From NCBI GenBank assembly GCA_022969815.1, contig GCA_022969815.1_4535.1: a stretch of 64,000 nt of DNA. One strand, written 5' to 3'. The stretch comes from Escherichia coli (lineage in GTDB: Bacteria; Pseudomonadota; Gammaproteobacteria; Enterobacterales; Enterobacteriaceae). Under the pieces are notes generated by a model. That model was not told the origin of the DNA. It did not search any database and saw only the letters and a list, made by a program, of their open reading frames with translations. Positions within the stretch are counted from its first letter, which is position 1. Every line of letters starts with the position of its first letter. The translations under genes were made by a program, and so were the position numbers. Shown here in pieces: positions 28,437 through 35,600 of this stretch.

Positions 28437-28793
28437 ATGGGTGCTATTATTTGGCTTGACGATTTACGTGATCCGAAAGATTACGGTTGTCCAGATGCAA
28501 TCTGGTTTAAAACATCACAGGAACTTCTTGCCTCTCGTTACATGAATGAGGTGCAGAAGGGTTATCGTTCTGTAGACGAGTGGCATTTTGACAATGATTT
28601 AGGAGAAGACTCTGATCAAGAGGGGTACGATGTTTTCTTGCGCTTGGAAGAACTTCTGTTTTTCGGTAAGCCTTGTTTTGGCAATCCTCTTATTTTTGTA
28701 CATACTTCTAACCCAGCAGCGGCAGAGAAGTTTATGCTTGCAGAGGAATCTATGTTGAGGTATGGTATTGAAATGATTCGTGTGAACTATTAA
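28437..28793 (+). CDS. hypothetical protein
   Basis: GAGGAGG RBS; 118 aa. Confidence 0.5.
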   Translation: MGAIIWLDDLRDPKDYGCPDAIWFKTSQELLASRYMNEVQKGYRSVDEWHFDNDLGEDSDQEGYDVFLRLEELLFFGKPCFGNPLIFVHTSNPAAAEKFMLAEESMLRYGIEMIRVNY

Positions 28794-28948: not shown

Positions 28949-29305
28949 ATGAGCAGTCTTGATCATAACATTTGTCACCAACCTCTCACCTGGATTGGTG
29001 AGGGTCATTATGCGCAACGTGTTATCGTCTGTGCTGCGAATAAGTATATTCTGAATAATGGTGAAGAGTTAATTATCCCTTGCGTTCGACATGCAAATCC
29101 TGTACTATATGCACAGTTAAGCGTGTTGAAAGAAGCAGGTGCGATCAGCAAAACTTTGTGCACGCCAGATAATCAAGGCTTTATCGATCAGTATTACAAT
29201 TGGTGGAGTCGTGAGGATGCTTACATCATCGCGGAAAATGCTGACCAGATTGACCATGAGCGTAATGGTCACGACCATGAACTATTTAGCGAGGGATTAT
29301 ACTAA
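28949..29305 (+). CDS. hypothetical protein
   Basis: GGAGAAA RBS before ATG at 28949 (MSSLDHN...). Confidence 0.45.
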   Translation: MSSLDHNICHQPLTWIGEGHYAQRVIVCAANKYILNNGEELIIPCVRHANPVLYAQLSVLKEAGAISKTLCTPDNQGFIDQYYNWWSREDAYIIAENADQIDHERNGHDHELFSEGLY

Positions 29306-29850
29306 TGTTTATTACAAGCGATTTGCATTTTATGCACAAACGTATTCGAGAGTTTGCTCCTGAATATCGTCCGTGGGAAGATATGGACCACATGACAGAA
29401 GCTCTGATTGAAGCATGGAACAAATGTGCTACTACTCCTGGTGTTAAGATGTGGCATTTGGGCGACTTCTGTTTCGGGACTGAAGAAGATACCCGTAAGA
29501 TTGCTTCCCGTCTCCAAGGAGATATCACTTATCTTGTTGGGAACCATGATTACAGCAAGCACCGAGAAGTGCTTGCAGAGTATGGCGAAGTGGTGTATTA
29601 TGACGAAGTGAAATACCAGAAGCTGTTCTTCGTCTTAAGTCATTACCCTATTGCCTCCTGGAACAAACAGGGTCGCGGTAGCATAATGCTCCACGGACAT
29701 TCTCACGGATCTTTCCCTGATGAAGCCTACGGTAAGATGCTTGACGTTGGTTGGGATGCACATGGCAAGATCCTGCACTTTGATGAAGTTATTGAAATGA
29801 TGGAAAAACGAGAAGTCATCACTGTAGACCATCATAAAATTATCCGATAG
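29305..29850 (+). CDS. metallophosphoesterase (calcineurin-like phosphoesterase)
   Basis: Motifs SDLHFMH, GDFCFG, GNHD, HGHSH in canonical order. Confidence 0.75.
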   Translation: MFITSDLHFMHKRIREFAPEYRPWEDMDHMTEALIEAWNKCATTPGVKMWHLGDFCFGTEEDTRKIASRLQGDITYLVGNHDYSKHREVLAEYGEVVYYDEVKYQKLFFVLSHYPIASWNKQGRGSIMLHGHSHGSFPDEAYGKMLDVGWDAHGKILHFDEVIEMMEKREVITVDHHKIIR

Positions 29851-29858
29851 GAGGAACA

Positions 29859-30185
29859 ATGCAAATTTATACAGATGATCGTAAGTACGAAACGATTCTT
29901 GACGAAGATACTGGACGAATCACAATCTTGCGCCACGGGGAAGAGTGGCGAGATGAAACTGGGGATAATTATATCTTATCTCTGATTCATCTTGTTGAAC
30001 AGATGCGTGACGACTACACCGAACTTCATTACGAAAATGAATTGAATAAGGTGAAGTTTGAAAACGAGATTGAAGAGAAAAACTTTGAAATCCTACAGCT
30101 TAAAGAAGAAAATCTTCGTCTTGAAGAAGAGATTGATGCTCTCCAGGAAGAGATTTACGAACTCAACAACGAACTGAATGCTTAA
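29859..30185 (+). CDS. hypothetical coiled-coil protein
   Basis: AGGAGG RBS; C-terminal heptad-like EE/LQ-rich segment. Confidence 0.5.
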   Translation: MQIYTDDRKYETILDEDTGRITILRHGEEWRDETGDNYILSLIHLVEQMRDDYTELHYENELNKVKFENEIEEKNFEILQLKEENLRLEEEIDALQEEIYELNNELNA

Positions 30186-30194
30186 GGAGGAAAA

Positions 30195-30347
30195 ATGGCA
30201 ACAATCTATATTTTGTTTGCTCTTTGGAGTCATGGTAGTAATGATTATACACAAGAATTCGGATCGCAAGGGGCTTGTGAGATGGCTTTAGCAGAAGGCA
30301 TCCGTAAGAATGTATTTGATCGTGGATTCTGCACACCTAAAGGTTAA
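30195..30347 (+). CDS. hypothetical small protein (50 aa)
   Basis: AAGGAGG RBS; below ORF-track cutoff. Confidence 0.35.
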   Translation: MATIYILFALWSHGSNDYTQEFGSQGACEMALAEGIRKNVFDRGFCTPKG

Positions 30348-30356
30348 GGAGAAAAC

Positions 30357-30548
30357 ATGAAGAAAGATATCGTTGTTGTTGGTTGGCTGACTTGCCCTTG
30401 TGGTAGTAATGACATAACTGTAAACACAGAGGGTGATAAAAATTATTTATTCTACGGTGATAAAATCACTTGCAATACCTGTGGACGTGTTGGTATTATA
30501 GAAACCGATGATTGTTGTGCTTTTGAATCTTGGGATGAAGAGGAATGA
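30357..30548 (+). CDS. hypothetical zinc-ribbon protein
   Basis: AAGGAG RBS; CPCG...CNTCG cysteine pairs. Confidence 0.5.
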   Translation: MKKDIVVVGWLTCPCGSNDITVNTEGDKNYLFYGDKITCNTCGRVGIIETDDCCAFESWDEEE

Positions 30549-30772
30549 GTACTGCATTTTATGTACGTAACGAGGATGAAGATTTCCTTGCTTCTTTCGA
30601 CGACGATTGCGATCTTGAAGAAATGTATGAAGACATGTTGGATTATGCCAAAGGTCAACGCTTTACGAGTGTTGATCATATGTTGGCAACTTCAACCATA
30701 ATCTTGGATCAAGATTTAGATGAGATCTGCAATCGATTAAAAATTGCATTATTTACTTGGGACGAAACATAA
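30545..30772 (+). CDS. hypothetical acidic protein
   Basis: overlapping stop/start; GAAGAGGA RBS. Confidence 0.45.
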   Translation: MSTAFYVRNEDEDFLASFDDDCDLEEMYEDMLDYAKGQRFTSVDHMLATSTIILDQDLDEICNRLKIALFTWDET

Positions 30773-30996
30773 TGGCAACAACATTCTATTTTGAAGGTAG
30801 TGAGAAAAAGACTTCCATTACCTTTCAAAGAAACACACCAGCAGAAGATTTCTTATGGATGATAATCGATCATCTGAGAAGCGAAGGTATTCACCATATA
30901 GACGAGTATTTCGCAGAGTCTACAGACTGGCAAAACGTTGTTATGGAAGATGTTATTTTCGAACTACACCATATTATTACGGAGGAAGGAATTTGA
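30772..30996 (+). CDS. hypothetical protein
   Basis: ATG at 30772 (MATTFYFEG...) preferred within ORF 30757..30996. Confidence 0.45.
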   Translation: MATTFYFEGSEKKTSITFQRNTPAEDFLWMIIDHLRSEGIHHIDEYFAESTDWQNVVMEDVIFELHHIITEEGI

Positions 30997-32108
30997 AACA
31001 GACGAATCAAACACTTTACGGTAAAGACTCAAATGGCAAACTGAAGCAATGGACTGTTTTCACAGACGGTGCAACAGTTACTGTAGCTCACGGTAAAGTT
31101 GGTGGAAAGATTACACAAAAATCATACGAAGCGGAAGCTAAAAATACTGGACGTGCAAATGCAACCACTCCAGAAGAACAAGCAGAAGCTGAAGCTTTTG
31201 CCAAGTGGACAAAACAACTGAAAAATGGTTATTATAAAACTATGGAAGAGGCGGAGAACCACGTCCCATCCACACCTATGAAATGCCAGGACTATAAAGA
31301 TTTTGCGCATAAGGTGGTCTTCCCTGGATATGCACAATACAAACTGAATGGCTTACGTTCAATGATCAACATGAAGGGCGAATGTTTGTCTAAAGCTGGA
31401 GAAGTTTACAAACTCCCTCCGCACTGGCAAGGTATTCCAAACTTCATCAGCGAAGTTGTTGGTCATCCTCTGGATGGGGAAGTGTTCGCTGGTCTTGGTG
31501 TTCTTAGTTTGCAACAGATTAATAGTGCATGGAAAAAGCACAATGAGAACACGCCGCTCCTGAACTATTATGTTTATGATGTTCCTGTGGCAGATATGCC
31601 ATTTGAGAAGCGTGTTGAAGTATTGGCGGCTCTTAAGGCTGTAGCTGAAGAGAGTGGTCTGGATGAACTGATCTGTGTAGTACATACAGAGTATATTGAA
31701 AATCAAGAACAGTTGGATGCATTTTATGCTAAAGCTTTGCTTGAAAAAGCTGAAGGTATTGTGTATCGTAATGCTCATGGTGTCTATGAGTTTGATAAAC
31801 GTTCCTATGACGTGATCAAACGAAAACCGCGCCAGACTTTGGAAGTTAAAGTTATTTCTATGCGTTCTGATAAAAATAACGATGGGGTGTTGACAGGTGA
31901 GATGGAGAATGGTAAACTTGTTGAGTTCTTGATGCGAAAAGATGCTCACGAAACTATCAACTACCGTAAAGCAGAAAATGCCGAAACTTTGATTGATCAG
32001 TTTGTTGAGATTGAGTATGAAGAATTTTCTGACGAAGGTATCCCAACTAAACCAGTCGGTGTACGTCTTCGTAAAATGATCCCAGGGACTTGGGAGCCAG
32101 CAGAATAA
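30993..32108 (+). CDS. WGR-domain protein with ligase-like nucleotidyltransferase core (putative ATP-dependent DNA/RNA ligase)
   Basis: TTG start at 30993 with GGAGGAAGG RBS; N-terminal W...HGKVGGK...KNGYY (WGR-like); KLNGLR resembles ligase motif I KxDGxR (D to N); HPLDGEVF resembles motif IV. Confidence 0.45.
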   Translation: MKQTNQTLYGKDSNGKLKQWTVFTDGATVTVAHGKVGGKITQKSYEAEAKNTGRANATTPEEQAEAEAFAKWTKQLKNGYYKTMEEAENHVPSTPMKCQDYKDFAHKVVFPGYAQYKLNGLRSMINMKGECLSKAGEVYKLPPHWQGIPNFISEVVGHPLDGEVFAGLGVLSLQQINSAWKKHNENTPLLNYYVYDVPVADMPFEKRVEVLAALKAVAEESGLDELICVVHTEYIENQEQLDAFYAKALLEKAEGIVYRNAHGVYEFDKRSYDVIKRKPRQTLEVKVISMRSDKNNDGVLTGEMENGKLVEFLMRKDAHETINYRKAENAETLIDQFVEIEYEEFSDEGIPTKPVGVRLRKMIPGTWEPAE

Positions 32109-32118
32109 AGGAGGTTGT

Positions 32119-32307
32119 ATGTTGATTTTAACAGTGTATATCTTGTTGTCAGTATTGGCTGTATGCTGTATGTTTCTTAGCTGTTGCAAAGATAAGACAC
32201 TTTTAGTCTCTGTAGCAAAAACTATAGATGCGATAATGGCGGGTGTTGGGTACGCAGCAGTGATCTACATTTTCTGTTTTTACTTTGTGGCTGAATGGGT
32301 TAATTAA
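32119..32307 (+). CDS. small membrane protein
   Basis: AAGGAGG RBS; two hydrophobic helices. Confidence 0.5.
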   Translation: MLILTVYILLSVLAVCCMFLSCCKDKTLLVSVAKTIDAIMAGVGYAAVIYIFCFYFVAEWVN

Positions 32308-32316
32308 GGGGGATTT

Positions 32317-32505
32317 ATGGGTGTTGAAGTTTTTCTGATTCTTTTGTTGCTTTCTATTGTGGCTTGTGGTATTATTATGGCTTCTACATTCCCATTAAAC
32401 ACTTGGTGGCGAAAATTAAGTCTGATGCTTATATACTGTGCAGCAGGTGCACAAATGGGTTCGGTTGTTGTCTACTTGACTGAACTCGCAAAAAACTATT
32501 TTTAA
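32317..32505 (+). CDS. small membrane protein
   Basis: AGGGGGA RBS; two hydrophobic helices. Confidence 0.5.
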   Translation: MGVEVFLILLLLSIVACGIIMASTFPLNTWWRKLSLMLIYCAAGAQMGSVVVYLTELAKNYF

Positions 32506-32518
32506 TAAGGAGAACAAG

Positions 32519-33247
32519 ATGATCGAGAACTTTTTTAAAGAGATTAAGGTAGATGTGGACTTCTATAAGAAAGCAGCTAAACATGTAATCGATTGGAATG
32601 CAAAAGCGCGTGGCGGAGAACAGCCGGAATTTGACCAGGCAATGTTTGTTTCCCAAATCGGGTTTGTTCGTGAAGAACTGAAAGAGTATGAAGAAGCCGC
32701 TAAAACTAATGATCACGTTGAACTCCTGGATGCAGCCGCCGATGTATTCGTTGTTTCCAGTTACCTGGTGTACATGTTCTTTGGTGAAGAAGCAACTCTG
32801 AAGTTCCTTGAGAATCAGGTTGGTACTGTCTTCACAGAAACAATCTACACCGATTTCGACAACATGGAAGCTACCTTTACTGATCCTGTTCAGATGGCAG
32901 TATTGAGTGCTGGTATTATGAACCTTGCGCGTGATACGCTGGTGCGTTCTGTCTATGCAGACAAAAAGATTATGAAAGAAGTTCTTGACAGTAATGATTC
33001 TAAGTACCCTACTAAGAAGCAACTGCTGGCTGTATGGAATACTTCCGATATTGATCTTGCAATTTCACAAGAATGCGCAGCGATTGAAGAGCGTAATGCC
33101 AATCGTCCTGAAGGTGCTTACACTGGCGTACATGCCACGTACAATGAAAAACAGAAAGTTTATGTGTTCTTTGATGATAAAGGTAAGATCATGAAACCTT
33201 CTACCTTTGTTAAACCTGATATTGCAAAAATCATTGCTAAGAAATAA
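32519..33247 (+). CDS. MazG-like nucleotide pyrophosphohydrolase, putative
   Basis: EELKEYEEAAKTNDHVELLDAAADV fits the E-x-x-E...E-x-x-D metal-binding pattern; weak. Confidence 0.3.
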   Translation: MIENFFKEIKVDVDFYKKAAKHVIDWNAKARGGEQPEFDQAMFVSQIGFVREELKEYEEAAKTNDHVELLDAAADVFVVSSYLVYMFFGEEATLKFLENQVGTVFTETIYTDFDNMEATFTDPVQMAVLSAGIMNLARDTLVRSVYADKKIMKEVLDSNDSKYPTKKQLLAVWNTSDIDLAISQECAAIEERNANRPEGAYTGVHATYNEKQKVYVFFDDKGKIMKPSTFVKPDIAKIIAKK

Positions 33248-33252
33248 TCTGT

Positions 33253-33278
33253 AAGCCGCCCTTCGGGGCGGTTATTGT
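33253..33278 (+). terminator. putative rho-independent terminator
   Basis: GCCGCCCTTCGGGGCGGT hairpin with weak T tract. Confidence 0.35.
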
Positions 33279-33304
33279 GAGAGTTAAATAATAGGAGGAA
33301 ATAT

Positions 33305-34183
33305 ATGTTCGTTAAATCTTTTAAATCTGCACTTCCGATGGTTGCTGGTGATAATGCTTCTGTAGCGTCTCTGAACGAGTTCAACGAATTTCCGATTGAC
33401 TTTGTACCTGCCGAAGGATCTCAAGCCCATACTATTGGTCTGGTTCGTTTTGAAGATGATGGGAAATACGTAAAAGAGTTCTCCGATCTGGAACTCCTCC
33501 AGGTTGGTCAATCTGTTAAGAAAGTTGACAAGAAGAAAGTTAAACGTCTTCTTAATGAACGCTTGGAAGAAATTCGAGTAGATATGGAAAGCCAAGGTCA
33601 AGAATTCTTTGTCGCTAAAGAAGACATGAAAGTCCTGAAAGCTGATATTGAATTTGGTCTGCTCCCAGAAACCGAACCGGAAGATTTCTTCAATTATGTG
33701 GTTCTGGATAAAACAACCAACCTGTTCTATGTGATCAATGGTAGTAAGAAAGTAGCGGAAGCTATTACTTGCTTCTTCCGTAATGTTTTGGGGACTTTCC
33801 CCTCTGTAGGTTTTAGTGTGCACGAAGAAGCAATTGTCAAAGGTTTTGGTACATTGCTGAAAGAACACGAAGCTGATCGCCTTACTCTTGGCAATTACAT
33901 TAAACTGGAAGATAGTGAAGGTGTTGTTGTCTGGACGAAAGAATCTCTTTACGATTCCAAAGCAATCGAACTTAAAGAAGATGGTAAAGATGTTGTCGCT
34001 ATTGGCTTGGAGTACGATGGTGTGCTGGAGTTTGTCGTAGATAAAGAGTTGAAGTTGAGCAAGCTTCGTTTCCCTAAATACTTCAACGATGACGAAGGCT
34101 CTATTGAAGCATCTACTCTACTTTGCTTCAACGAGATTCGTGGTTTGATGGCAGATCTGACGAAAGCAACTATTCTTAAATAA
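33305..34183 (+). CDS. hypothetical protein
   Basis: AGGAGG RBS; 292 aa acidic protein. Confidence 0.5.
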   Translation: MFVKSFKSALPMVAGDNASVASLNEFNEFPIDFVPAEGSQAHTIGLVRFEDDGKYVKEFSDLELLQVGQSVKKVDKKKVKRLLNERLEEIRVDMESQGQEFFVAKEDMKVLKADIEFGLLPETEPEDFFNYVVLDKTTNLFYVINGSKKVAEAITCFFRNVLGTFPSVGFSVHEEAIVKGFGTLLKEHEADRLTLGNYIKLEDSEGVVVWTKESLYDSKAIELKEDGKDVVAIGLEYDGVLEFVVDKELKLSKLRFPKYFNDDEGSIEASTLLCFNEIRGLMADLTKATILK

Positions 34184-34508: not shown

Positions 34509-35600
34509 TTGCACAAGTATGTTGACCTAAACACTGTTGTGGTTATCGATTATGACCAAGTGGCTTTCCAAGCAGCTTCTGCTGTAGAGAAGCGTCGTAT
34601 CTTGGCTAAACATGCAGCCTCCGGTTCCGAAAAAGAATTTGACAATAAGACAGAGTTTTGGGGTAAGAGTAAAACTGAAATTGGTGGTTGGCTTGGAGCA
34701 TTGAATGCTAAACGAGAAGAGCAGGGTAAACGTCCTTTCACCAAAGAAGAGTTTGAAATTGTCGATGTGCAGTACGTACCAGACACTTTGTCACATGCTT
34801 TTCAAGCAGCTAAAACAAAAGTTCAAGCGATCTTAAAGCATTTAAGTTTAGAAAAATATTGCGGAGTTATCGGTGTAGGGAAAACCTTCCGACATGATTT
34901 TAAGATGCCTACCGAATATAAATCTGAACGATCTGACATTAAGCCTTTACAACTATCCGATACCAAAGACTACTTGGTAGAGCAACACAATGGGGATGTT
35001 GTTACGGTTATCGAAGCCGATGATGAATTAGAGAAGTACGGTTTCCAAGGCTACAAAGATTACAAACGCACAGGAAAATTCTCTTACATCCTGGCGTCAA
35101 TAGATAAAGACAGCCTATCCACTCCAAGCATCCTCTTTAACTTCTACAAAGAAGACGGTGTATTCAAGAATCCAGATATCATCTTGATAGACGAGTCCAT
35201 CGGAGACTTGTGGATTGTTGAAAAGGGCAAGAAAAAAGAGGTGAAGGGTTGGGGATCTTTCTGGTTGGCCTATCAGATGCTGATGGGAGATAAAACGGAT
35301 AGCATCCGTCCTTACCAGGATTTTGGTATTAAGTTTGGAGACGTTTCTTGCTTCAACTTGATATCTGAATGCAAGACCCAAGCTGAACTTTTCCAGAAAG
35401 TGAAAGATACATTTTATACCTGGTTCCCTGAAGGTGTTAAATTTACATCTTGGGATGGGGAAGCAGTAGAATTAACAACCGATCAATGGATCGAGACAAT
35501 ATTCCAACTTGTTTACATGAAGCGTTGGGATAACGATAACACAACTTTTGAGAGTATGCTTCAAGCGTACATTTCACAACAGGAGACAATTAATGAGTAA
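34509..35600 (+). CDS. 5'-3' exonuclease / flap endonuclease (T5 D15-like family)
   Basis: TTG start; motifs VVVIDYDQVAFQA, VIEADDELEKYG, ILASIDKD, GDKTDSIRPYQDFGIKFG match FEN-family blocks. Confidence 0.55.
   Translation: MHKYVDLNTVVVIDYDQVAFQAASAVEKRRILAKHAASGSEKEFDNKTEFWGKSKTEIGGWLGALNAKREEQGKRPFTKEEFEIVDVQYVPDTLSHAFQAAKTKVQAILKHLSLEKYCGVIGVGKTFRHDFKMPTEYKSERSDIKPLQLSDTKDYLVEQHNGDVVTVIEADDELEKYGFQGYKDYKRTGKFSYILASIDKDSLSTPSILFNFYKEDGVFKNPDIILIDESIGDLWIVEKGKKKEVKGWGSFWLAYQMLMGDKTDSIRPYQDFGIKFGDVSCFNLISECKTQAELFQKVKDTFYTWFPEGVKFTSWDGEAVELTTDQWIETIFQLVYMKRWDNDNTTFESMLQAYISQQETINE

Follow-up and report, generated by a model that had tools for sequence, protein, structure and literature searches.

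The locus at 30993-32108 (plus strand) raises the question of whether a reading frame that joins a WGR-like N-terminus to a ligase-like nucleotidyltransferase, and that carries Asn where motif I usually has Asp, encodes a working ATP-dependent DNA ligase. It lies in a 64,000-nucleotide stretch from an Escherichia coli assembly, referred to here in its full length as the window. Our reading, held with high confidence, is that this open reading frame is the three-domain ATP-dependent DNA ligase of a phage and that Asn119 is compatible with activity. Across positions 30000-33500, nucleotide identity amounts to 96.4% with Escherichia phages phiWec188 and phiWec190 and to 79-95% with other phages of the genus Phapecoctavirus (Stephanstirmvirinae; E. 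coli myoviruses of about 150 kb), and judged by this similarity the window belongs to an E. coli phage that resembles Phapecoctavirus. The enzyme is an ordinary phage ligase, already known and annotated in close relatives, and the gene itself is of small import, being the replication or repair ligase expected in well-sampled E. coli phages.

The assignment to the ligase family was examined with profile and homology searches. All of the sequence features from which the original prediction had read a fusion of a WGR-like domain with a ligase-like nucleotidyltransferase (W20, H33-G-K-V-G-G-K39, K77-N-G-Y-Y81, K117-L-N-G-L-R122, and D161-G-E-V164) are present in the one frame, and the HMM search that it had proposed for the ligase family came back positive. 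Chance does not account for these features: Pfam DNA_ligase_A_M (PF01068) scored 41.1 bits over aa 96-278, where 26.2 is the cut-off (E = 2.1e-10), covering profile positions 2-204 of 204, and PHROG 114, "ATP-dependent DNA ligase," matched aa 2-361 with E = 2.9e-74. In NCBIfam, the ligase matches were all below threshold, with none for the N-terminal domain. The PHROG 114 ligases of phAPEC8, ukendt, rV5, Felix O1-like phages, and Nankokuvirus belong to the same family; those of ukendt and further phapecoctaviruses, with identities of 84-89%, carry the annotation ATP-dependent DNA ligase, as does the gene in PsgM04F and other phages. Using tblastn, a homologue was found in 746 phage records (in 573 of them over 80% or more of the protein length) from hosts that include Escherichia, Pseudomonas, Klebsiella, Vibrio, Erwinia, Salmonella, and Campylobacter, the usual annotation being DNA ligase.

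This assignment is further strengthened by structural comparison. [quoted passage not shown] An AlphaFold2 model built from 69 sequences reached a mean pLDDT of 94, and a Foldseek search of this model against the PDB returned the closed, DNA-bound AsfvLIG complexes first (E about 3e-24), with a TM score of 0.76-0.77 over about 410 columns spanning all three domains, as against only 0.49 for the open AsfvLIG complex. Of the solved structures, AsfvLIG (NP419L; PDB 6IMJ/6IMK/6IML/6IMN) is therewith the one nearest to the phage protein across the three domains (TM 0.77), although it is only about 20% identical and 48 residues longer. The nucleotidyltransferase (adenylation) domain occupies approximately aa 96-280 (31278-31832), as delimited by the PF01068 match and the structural matches, and the C-terminal OB-fold domain approximately aa 281-371 (31833-32105), where the AlphaFold model is all-beta and superposes on AsfvLIG and other ligases. 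Pfam OB_2 is weak and below threshold in the phage ligase itself (E = 0.07), whereas the homologue P0065 has an OB_2 entry; the OB domains of complete ligases superpose on the predicted structure, and motif VI lines up with its AsfvLIG counterpart, R360 being conserved. The Chlorella virus ligase and bacterial Lig E have the same adenylation and OB_2 core and the same motifs as the phage ligase but are without the N-terminal DNA-binding domain and keep the canonical motif I Asp; the former has a latch, whereas Lig E has neither latch nor binding domain. No assayed member of the phage ligase subfamily with the WGR-like domain was found in the literature, and we therefore infer activity, cofactor, and substrate from the family. 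The Rhizobium phage P10VF ligase (9FZX), reported to resemble the T4 and P. marinus ligases in structure, is of a different class.

The N-terminal domain (aa 1-95, 30993-31277), homologous to that of AsfvLIG, is predicted to be a divergent WGR-like DNA-binding domain. Here the original prediction of a WGR-like N-terminus holds up: it is borne out by profile-profile alignment, by a profile search of PDB sequences, and by fold, whereas the Pfam WGR model PF05406 found no match in the phage ligase, either in the whole protein or in the domain alone, even at E ≤ 10. Weak PF05406 matches occurred in 6 of 36 relatives, the best at E = 0.012 and below the gathering threshold. Since the Pfam model is silent on the phage ligase, recognizing the homology needed profile-profile and fold comparison. 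Searched against PDB sequences, the domain profile matched Bacteroides fragilis Q64V53 (2RA8) first (E = 0.0025) and AsfvLIG next (E = 0.0028), and the part of 2RA8 so matched is a genuine WGR domain, itself found by PF05406 at E = 1.9e-18. Using hhalign, the ligase domain alignment matched a 2RA8-seeded WGR alignment, made of the seed and 23 members that all have a precomputed PF05406 match, with a probability of 95.4% and E = 1.7e-8 over 61 columns. The predicted domain shows the antiparallel sheet packed on a long helix that defines the WGR fold, and both this fold and the core signature positions correspond to those of WGR domains (PF05406; PARP1/2/3, MolR-like proteins, and 2RA8), which supports a divergent WGR fold. 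W20 aligns with the Trp of the WGR "KFW," H33-G34-K35 with Trp-Gly-Arg (Tyr-Gly-Lys in 2RA8), and K77-x-G-Y80 with KKGY. Conservation was read from a close set of 121 aligned homologues with at least 45% identity and from a wider set of 217 ligases with the same N-terminal domain. The Gly of the triplet is invariant in the 121 sequences, while position 33 is His in 107 of them and Trp in 3, and position 35 is Lys, Arg, or Gln. Within aa 1-95, W20, G34, N51, N56, Q63, A64, E67, G79, Y80, and P95 are invariant. Relative to canonical WGR domains there is an 11-residue insertion, K50-N-x-G-R-x-N-x-T-T, between the last strand and the helix. In the phage protein the WGR-like domain is fused to a ligase, in PARPs the WGR domain goes with the PARP catalytic domain, and bacterial ligases with a nucleotidyltransferase and OB_2 core have been reviewed as carrying an annotated WGR domain (PMC7470946).

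The comparison with AsfvLIG suggests what this domain does. The phage protein contains a homologue of the AsfvLIG N-terminal domain together with the DNA-contact loop that marks ligases of this type, although the phage model has four main strands plus helices where AsfvLIG has seven strands and three helices. Deleting the N-terminal domain of AsfvLIG abolished both DNA binding and ligation; its K85-A92 loop fits into the DNA major groove, with Gly-Gly replacement lowering binding and ligation, and its Gln98, to which the invariant phage Q63 aligns, hydrogen-bonds a DNA phosphate (PMC6344480). The corresponding phage segment, the loop K50-N-T-G-R-A-N-A-T-T59 and the helix start Q63-A64 (31140-31184), aligns with AsfvLIG K85-A92 and Gln98 and is the predicted DNA contact. 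By analogy with AsfvLIG, the domain would thus most likely serve in DNA binding and clamp closing, although these DNA contacts are predicted from a modelled structure and from AsfvLIG at only about 20% identity.

Taken as family members act, the enzyme would follow the standard three steps, in which Lys117 would attack ATP to form a covalent ligase-AMP, the AMP would be passed to the 5'-phosphate of the nick, and attack by the 3'-OH would seal it. The WGR-like, nucleotidyltransferase, and OB domains would together encircle the nicked duplex, as in DNA-bound AsfvLIG, with contacts to the DNA made by the K50-N-x-G-R-x-N-x-T-T loop and by the helix after it (Q63). A likely role would be the sealing of Okazaki-fragment, repair, or recombination nicks in phage DNA, and the enzyme would act independently of the NAD-dependent LigA of the host.

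The genes around the ligase are tightly packed on the plus strand, and the ligase sits in a same-strand block for replication, recombination, and nucleotide metabolism. Upstream lie a gene for a 118-aa cREC_REC protein (28437-28793; Pfam "cyclic-phosphate processing receiver domain," E = 2.6e-13) and, just after it, a metallophosphoesterase gene (29305-29850), the Pfam name of the former pointing to cyclic-phosphate processing. In phage ukendt, genes annotated as "putative RNA ligase" and "ATPase" (909-2246 of the compared stretch) stand between the phosphoesterase and the next gene; in the window the phosphoesterase frame, ending at 29850, is followed directly by a frame at 29859, the RNA ligase and ATPase genes being absent there. 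A 63-aa frame at 30357-30548 (plus strand) has C-P-C and C-N-T-C pairs and a C-C pair, with a zinc-ribbon-like look and no Pfam match. Directly after the ligase, two 62-aa frames (32119-32307 and 32317-32505, both plus strand) are strongly hydrophobic and hypothetical in relatives; they probably encode small membrane proteins. Further downstream on the same strand follow a MazG-like pyrophosphohydrolase (32519-33247), an RdgC-like protein (33305-34183), and a 363-aa "putative exonuclease" (34509-35600), which is so annotated in relatives and has no Pfam match at E ≤ 0.01. A promoter and terminator scan of 29000-33500 showed nothing convincing around the ligase, an outcome that would suit a dense operon on one strand but is in itself uninformative.

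This neighborhood bears on a different reading of the protein, namely that it acts mainly on RNA, as an RNA or RNA-splinted ligase or a capping-type enzyme whose WGR-like domain binds RNA as part of an RNA-repair module. WGR domains have been described as RNA-binding in other proteins (review, PMC7470946), the cREC_REC protein and metallophosphoesterase lie some 1.2-2.5 kb upstream, and relatives have in this vicinity an RNA ligase gene that is missing here. However, the top sequence and structure matches are all DNA ligases, the first capping enzyme appearing at Foldseek rank 50 with E = 8e-10 against 3e-24, and the homologous N-terminal domain of AsfvLIG binds duplex DNA (PMC6344480). Relatives with the RNA ligase also keep the ligase gene, and because they carry both, the ligase gene is no replacement of the RNA ligase. 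An RNA-acting enzyme is therefore most unlikely, and the reading as a DNA ligase is retained.

A DNA ligase of this family should show the nucleotidyltransferase motifs, and these were located by comparison with known ligases. Alignments of 69-121 homologues, reaching down to 45% identity, show no variation at K117, G120, R122, D161, E163, Y195, E254, G255, K276, or K278. Motif I is K117-L-N119-G-L-R122 (31341-31358), in which K117, G120, and R122 are invariant in the 121 sequences and Asn replaces the usual Asp; it aligns with K151-R-N153-G-V-R of AsfvLIG and with KLDGIR of 4D05, the Lig E-type Psychromonas ligase, and K117 is the predicted AMP-accepting lysine. The block D161-G-E-V164, which had been taken for motif IV, is instead motif III: D161-G-E163-V-F (31473-31487) aligns with LDGEL of AsfvLIG and 4D05, with D161 and E163 invariant, and motif IV proper is E254-G-I-V-Y-R259 (31752-31769), in which E254 and G255 are invariant and R259 nearly so. 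Motif IIIa, Y193-V-Y-D196 (31569-31580), aligns with AsfvLIG FYVFD; in the close set Y195 never varies and over 98% of sequences keep D196, and in the wider set position 195 is Tyr or Phe. Motif V is V274-I-K276-R-K278 (31812-31826), with K276 and K278 invariant. The motif VI region, P351-T352-K353-P-V-G-V-R-L-R360 (32043-32072), was missed by a regular-expression search and was placed by sequence alignment and HMM alignment to AsfvLIG; K353 is invariant in the close family, and in the profile alignment T352 and K353 sit at the positions of AsfvLIG Leu402/Gln403 and human LIG1 Arg871/Phe872.

The Asn in motif I, from which the original prediction had questioned normal adenylylation, is thus real: the third residue is Asn119 (AAT, 31347-31349), in a KLNGLR that otherwise keeps the Lys, Gly, and Arg of the motif. 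It is shared by most close homologues (Asn in 109 of 121, Asp in the other 12), and in the wider set of 217 the two residues are mixed (130 Asn, 87 Asp). The ligases of rV5, Nankokuvirus LSL4, Felix O1-like SB18, and Vibrio phage qdvp001, which have the same N-terminal domain, all read KxDGxR and have Phe at position 353, in contrast to Asn119, Thr352, and Lys353 in the phapecoctavirus clade. Because Asn is the majority in close homologues, Asp and Asn are mixed in the wider set, and Asp prevails in distant phages, Asn119 is a clade-level variant that interchanges with Asp and no one-off lesion. When the motif I Asp/Asn state was compared with the columns of the wider alignment, position 352 ranked first, with about 30 columns scoring almost as high; since so many other columns differ almost as much, the signal is confounded by clade structure and no coupling of motif I with OB positions 352/353 is claimed.

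What such a substitution does to catalysis has been addressed in other ligases. Wild-type AsfvLIG, which has the same Asn, binds ATP and ligates; the conformation of its Asn153 resembles that of human LIG1 Asp570, which forms a salt bridge to Arg871 of the OB domain, and AsfvLIG multiple mutants that include N153D have activity below the wild type (PMC6344480). The Chlorella virus ligase mutant D29A had at most trace activity when given a pre-adenylated nick, although the corresponding mutant of LigIV was proficient and in T4 Rnl2 this position is occupied by His (PMC6035275). A kinetic effect of Asn119 is accordingly possible, given how nearly inactive Chlorella virus D29A is on adenylated nicks, while a loss of function through Asn119 is unlikely. 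The more severe reading, that the change from Asp to Asn cripples catalysis and leaves a degenerate ligase or a nick-binding pseudo-enzyme, could draw on the high conservation of the motif I Asp among ligases and on the same nearly dead D29A mutant (PMC6035275). It is nonetheless very improbable, considering that all other catalytic residues are invariant across the family, that the Asn is itself conserved in the close homologues, that Asp and Asn swap within one clade, that AsfvLIG is active with the same Asn (PMC6344480), that T4 Rnl2 has a His there (PMC6035275), and that no other DNA ligase was seen near the gene in the window. Since AsfvLIG is active with this residue, the replacement of Asp by Asn is best seen as a lineage variant and is no sign of inactivity, and Asn119 lets the membership in the ligase family stand.

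At the nick site the likeness to AsfvLIG is mixed. Among the four nick-site residues regarded as unique to AsfvLIG, two are identical in the phage ligase (N119 for Asn153 and L173 for Leu211) and the two of the OB domain differ (T352 for Leu402 and K353 for Gln403). The structure paper termed the N-terminal domain of AsfvLIG a completely novel fold (PMC6344480), and Williamson and Leiros treated the DNA-binding domain as unique (PMC7470946), while Yutin and Koonin grouped the ligase of ASFV with ATP-dependent ligases of bacteria and phages (PMC2806865). In the literature found, nothing linked the AsfvLIG domain to WGR or to the phage ligase family; domain databases may hold such a link. AsfvLIG is notably error-prone, and the phage enzyme comes from a bacterial virus. 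The clade shares the Asn and Leu of AsfvLIG and has Thr-Lys in place of the canonical OB Arg-Phe, so a relaxed fidelity or substrate range is conceivable; the combined proposal, that the phage clade is of relaxed fidelity or broadened substrate range like AsfvLIG and that the N-terminal domain of AsfvLIG is a WGR-derived module for binding nicks or duplex, inherited from the large phage ligase family, is rather doubtful and is offered tentatively. If true, a WGR origin would link nick recognition by ligases to the WGR domains of PARP type. Although presented as peculiar to AsfvLIG and put forward as drug targets, this N-terminal domain and the nick-site Asn and Leu are here common to a large phage family as well. 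Once characterized, the phage enzyme would be a tractable model for the role of the motif I Asn and for whether such an architecture accompanies low fidelity, and it might serve as a ligase reagent.

The 5' end of the gene was settled by comparison with relatives. As read from the sequence, the coding sequence runs from the TTG at 30993-30995 to the TAA at 32106-32108, giving 371 aa, within an open frame that spans 30855-32108. A Shine-Dalgarno-like GGAGG (30981-30985, plus strand) lies 7 nt before the TTG, and the TGA (30994-30996) of the upstream frame at 30772-30996 overlaps the ligase start as TTTGA. The same TTG is annotated as the start in phage phiWec188, whose protein is 99.5% identical; in phage ukendt, at 89% identity, exactly the equivalent codon is an ATG, preceded by GGGAGG. 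Metagenome homologues begin at the same point, with conservation from T7-L8-Y9 onward. The TTG start with its ribosome-binding site, as originally proposed, is confirmed by two independent annotations and by the homologue N-termini, and translation is probably coupled to that of the upstream frame. There is next to no chance that the gene instead starts at the ATG at 30855 and yields a 417-aa protein with an N-terminal extension, for although this is the first start codon of the open frame and so heads a mechanical list of frames, the 46 extra residues run, out of frame, over nearly the whole upstream gene (30772-30996), an overlap already remarked in the original prediction, are absent from every homologue, and follow no good ribosome-binding site that was noted, while both independent annotations take the codon equivalent to 30993, which is ATG in ukendt.

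A few further observations concern the breadth of the family. At E ≤ 1e-3 the domain profile matched 4,157 representatives of clusters made at 50% identity, and 2,362 still matched at E ≤ 1e-10; among the best 150 listed most are of ligase size (355-400 aa) or shorter, and hits of about 700 aa are the same ligase with an intein in it. Some family ligases reach about 590-785 aa through an intein with a LAGLIDADG homing endonuclease inside motif I (KLDG / C...HN / CR), and the seven intein-bearing metagenome relatives with a readable junction (P0147, P0152, P0160, P0167, P0182, P0248, and P0251) have Asp in the motif. One record, OR584014.1 ("Pseudomonas phage PsgM04F," host Pseudomonas coronafaciens), shows 94.8% nucleotide identity to E. 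coli phapecoctaviruses over the 3.5 kb at 30000-33500, a host label that is unexpected for a Phapecoctavirus.
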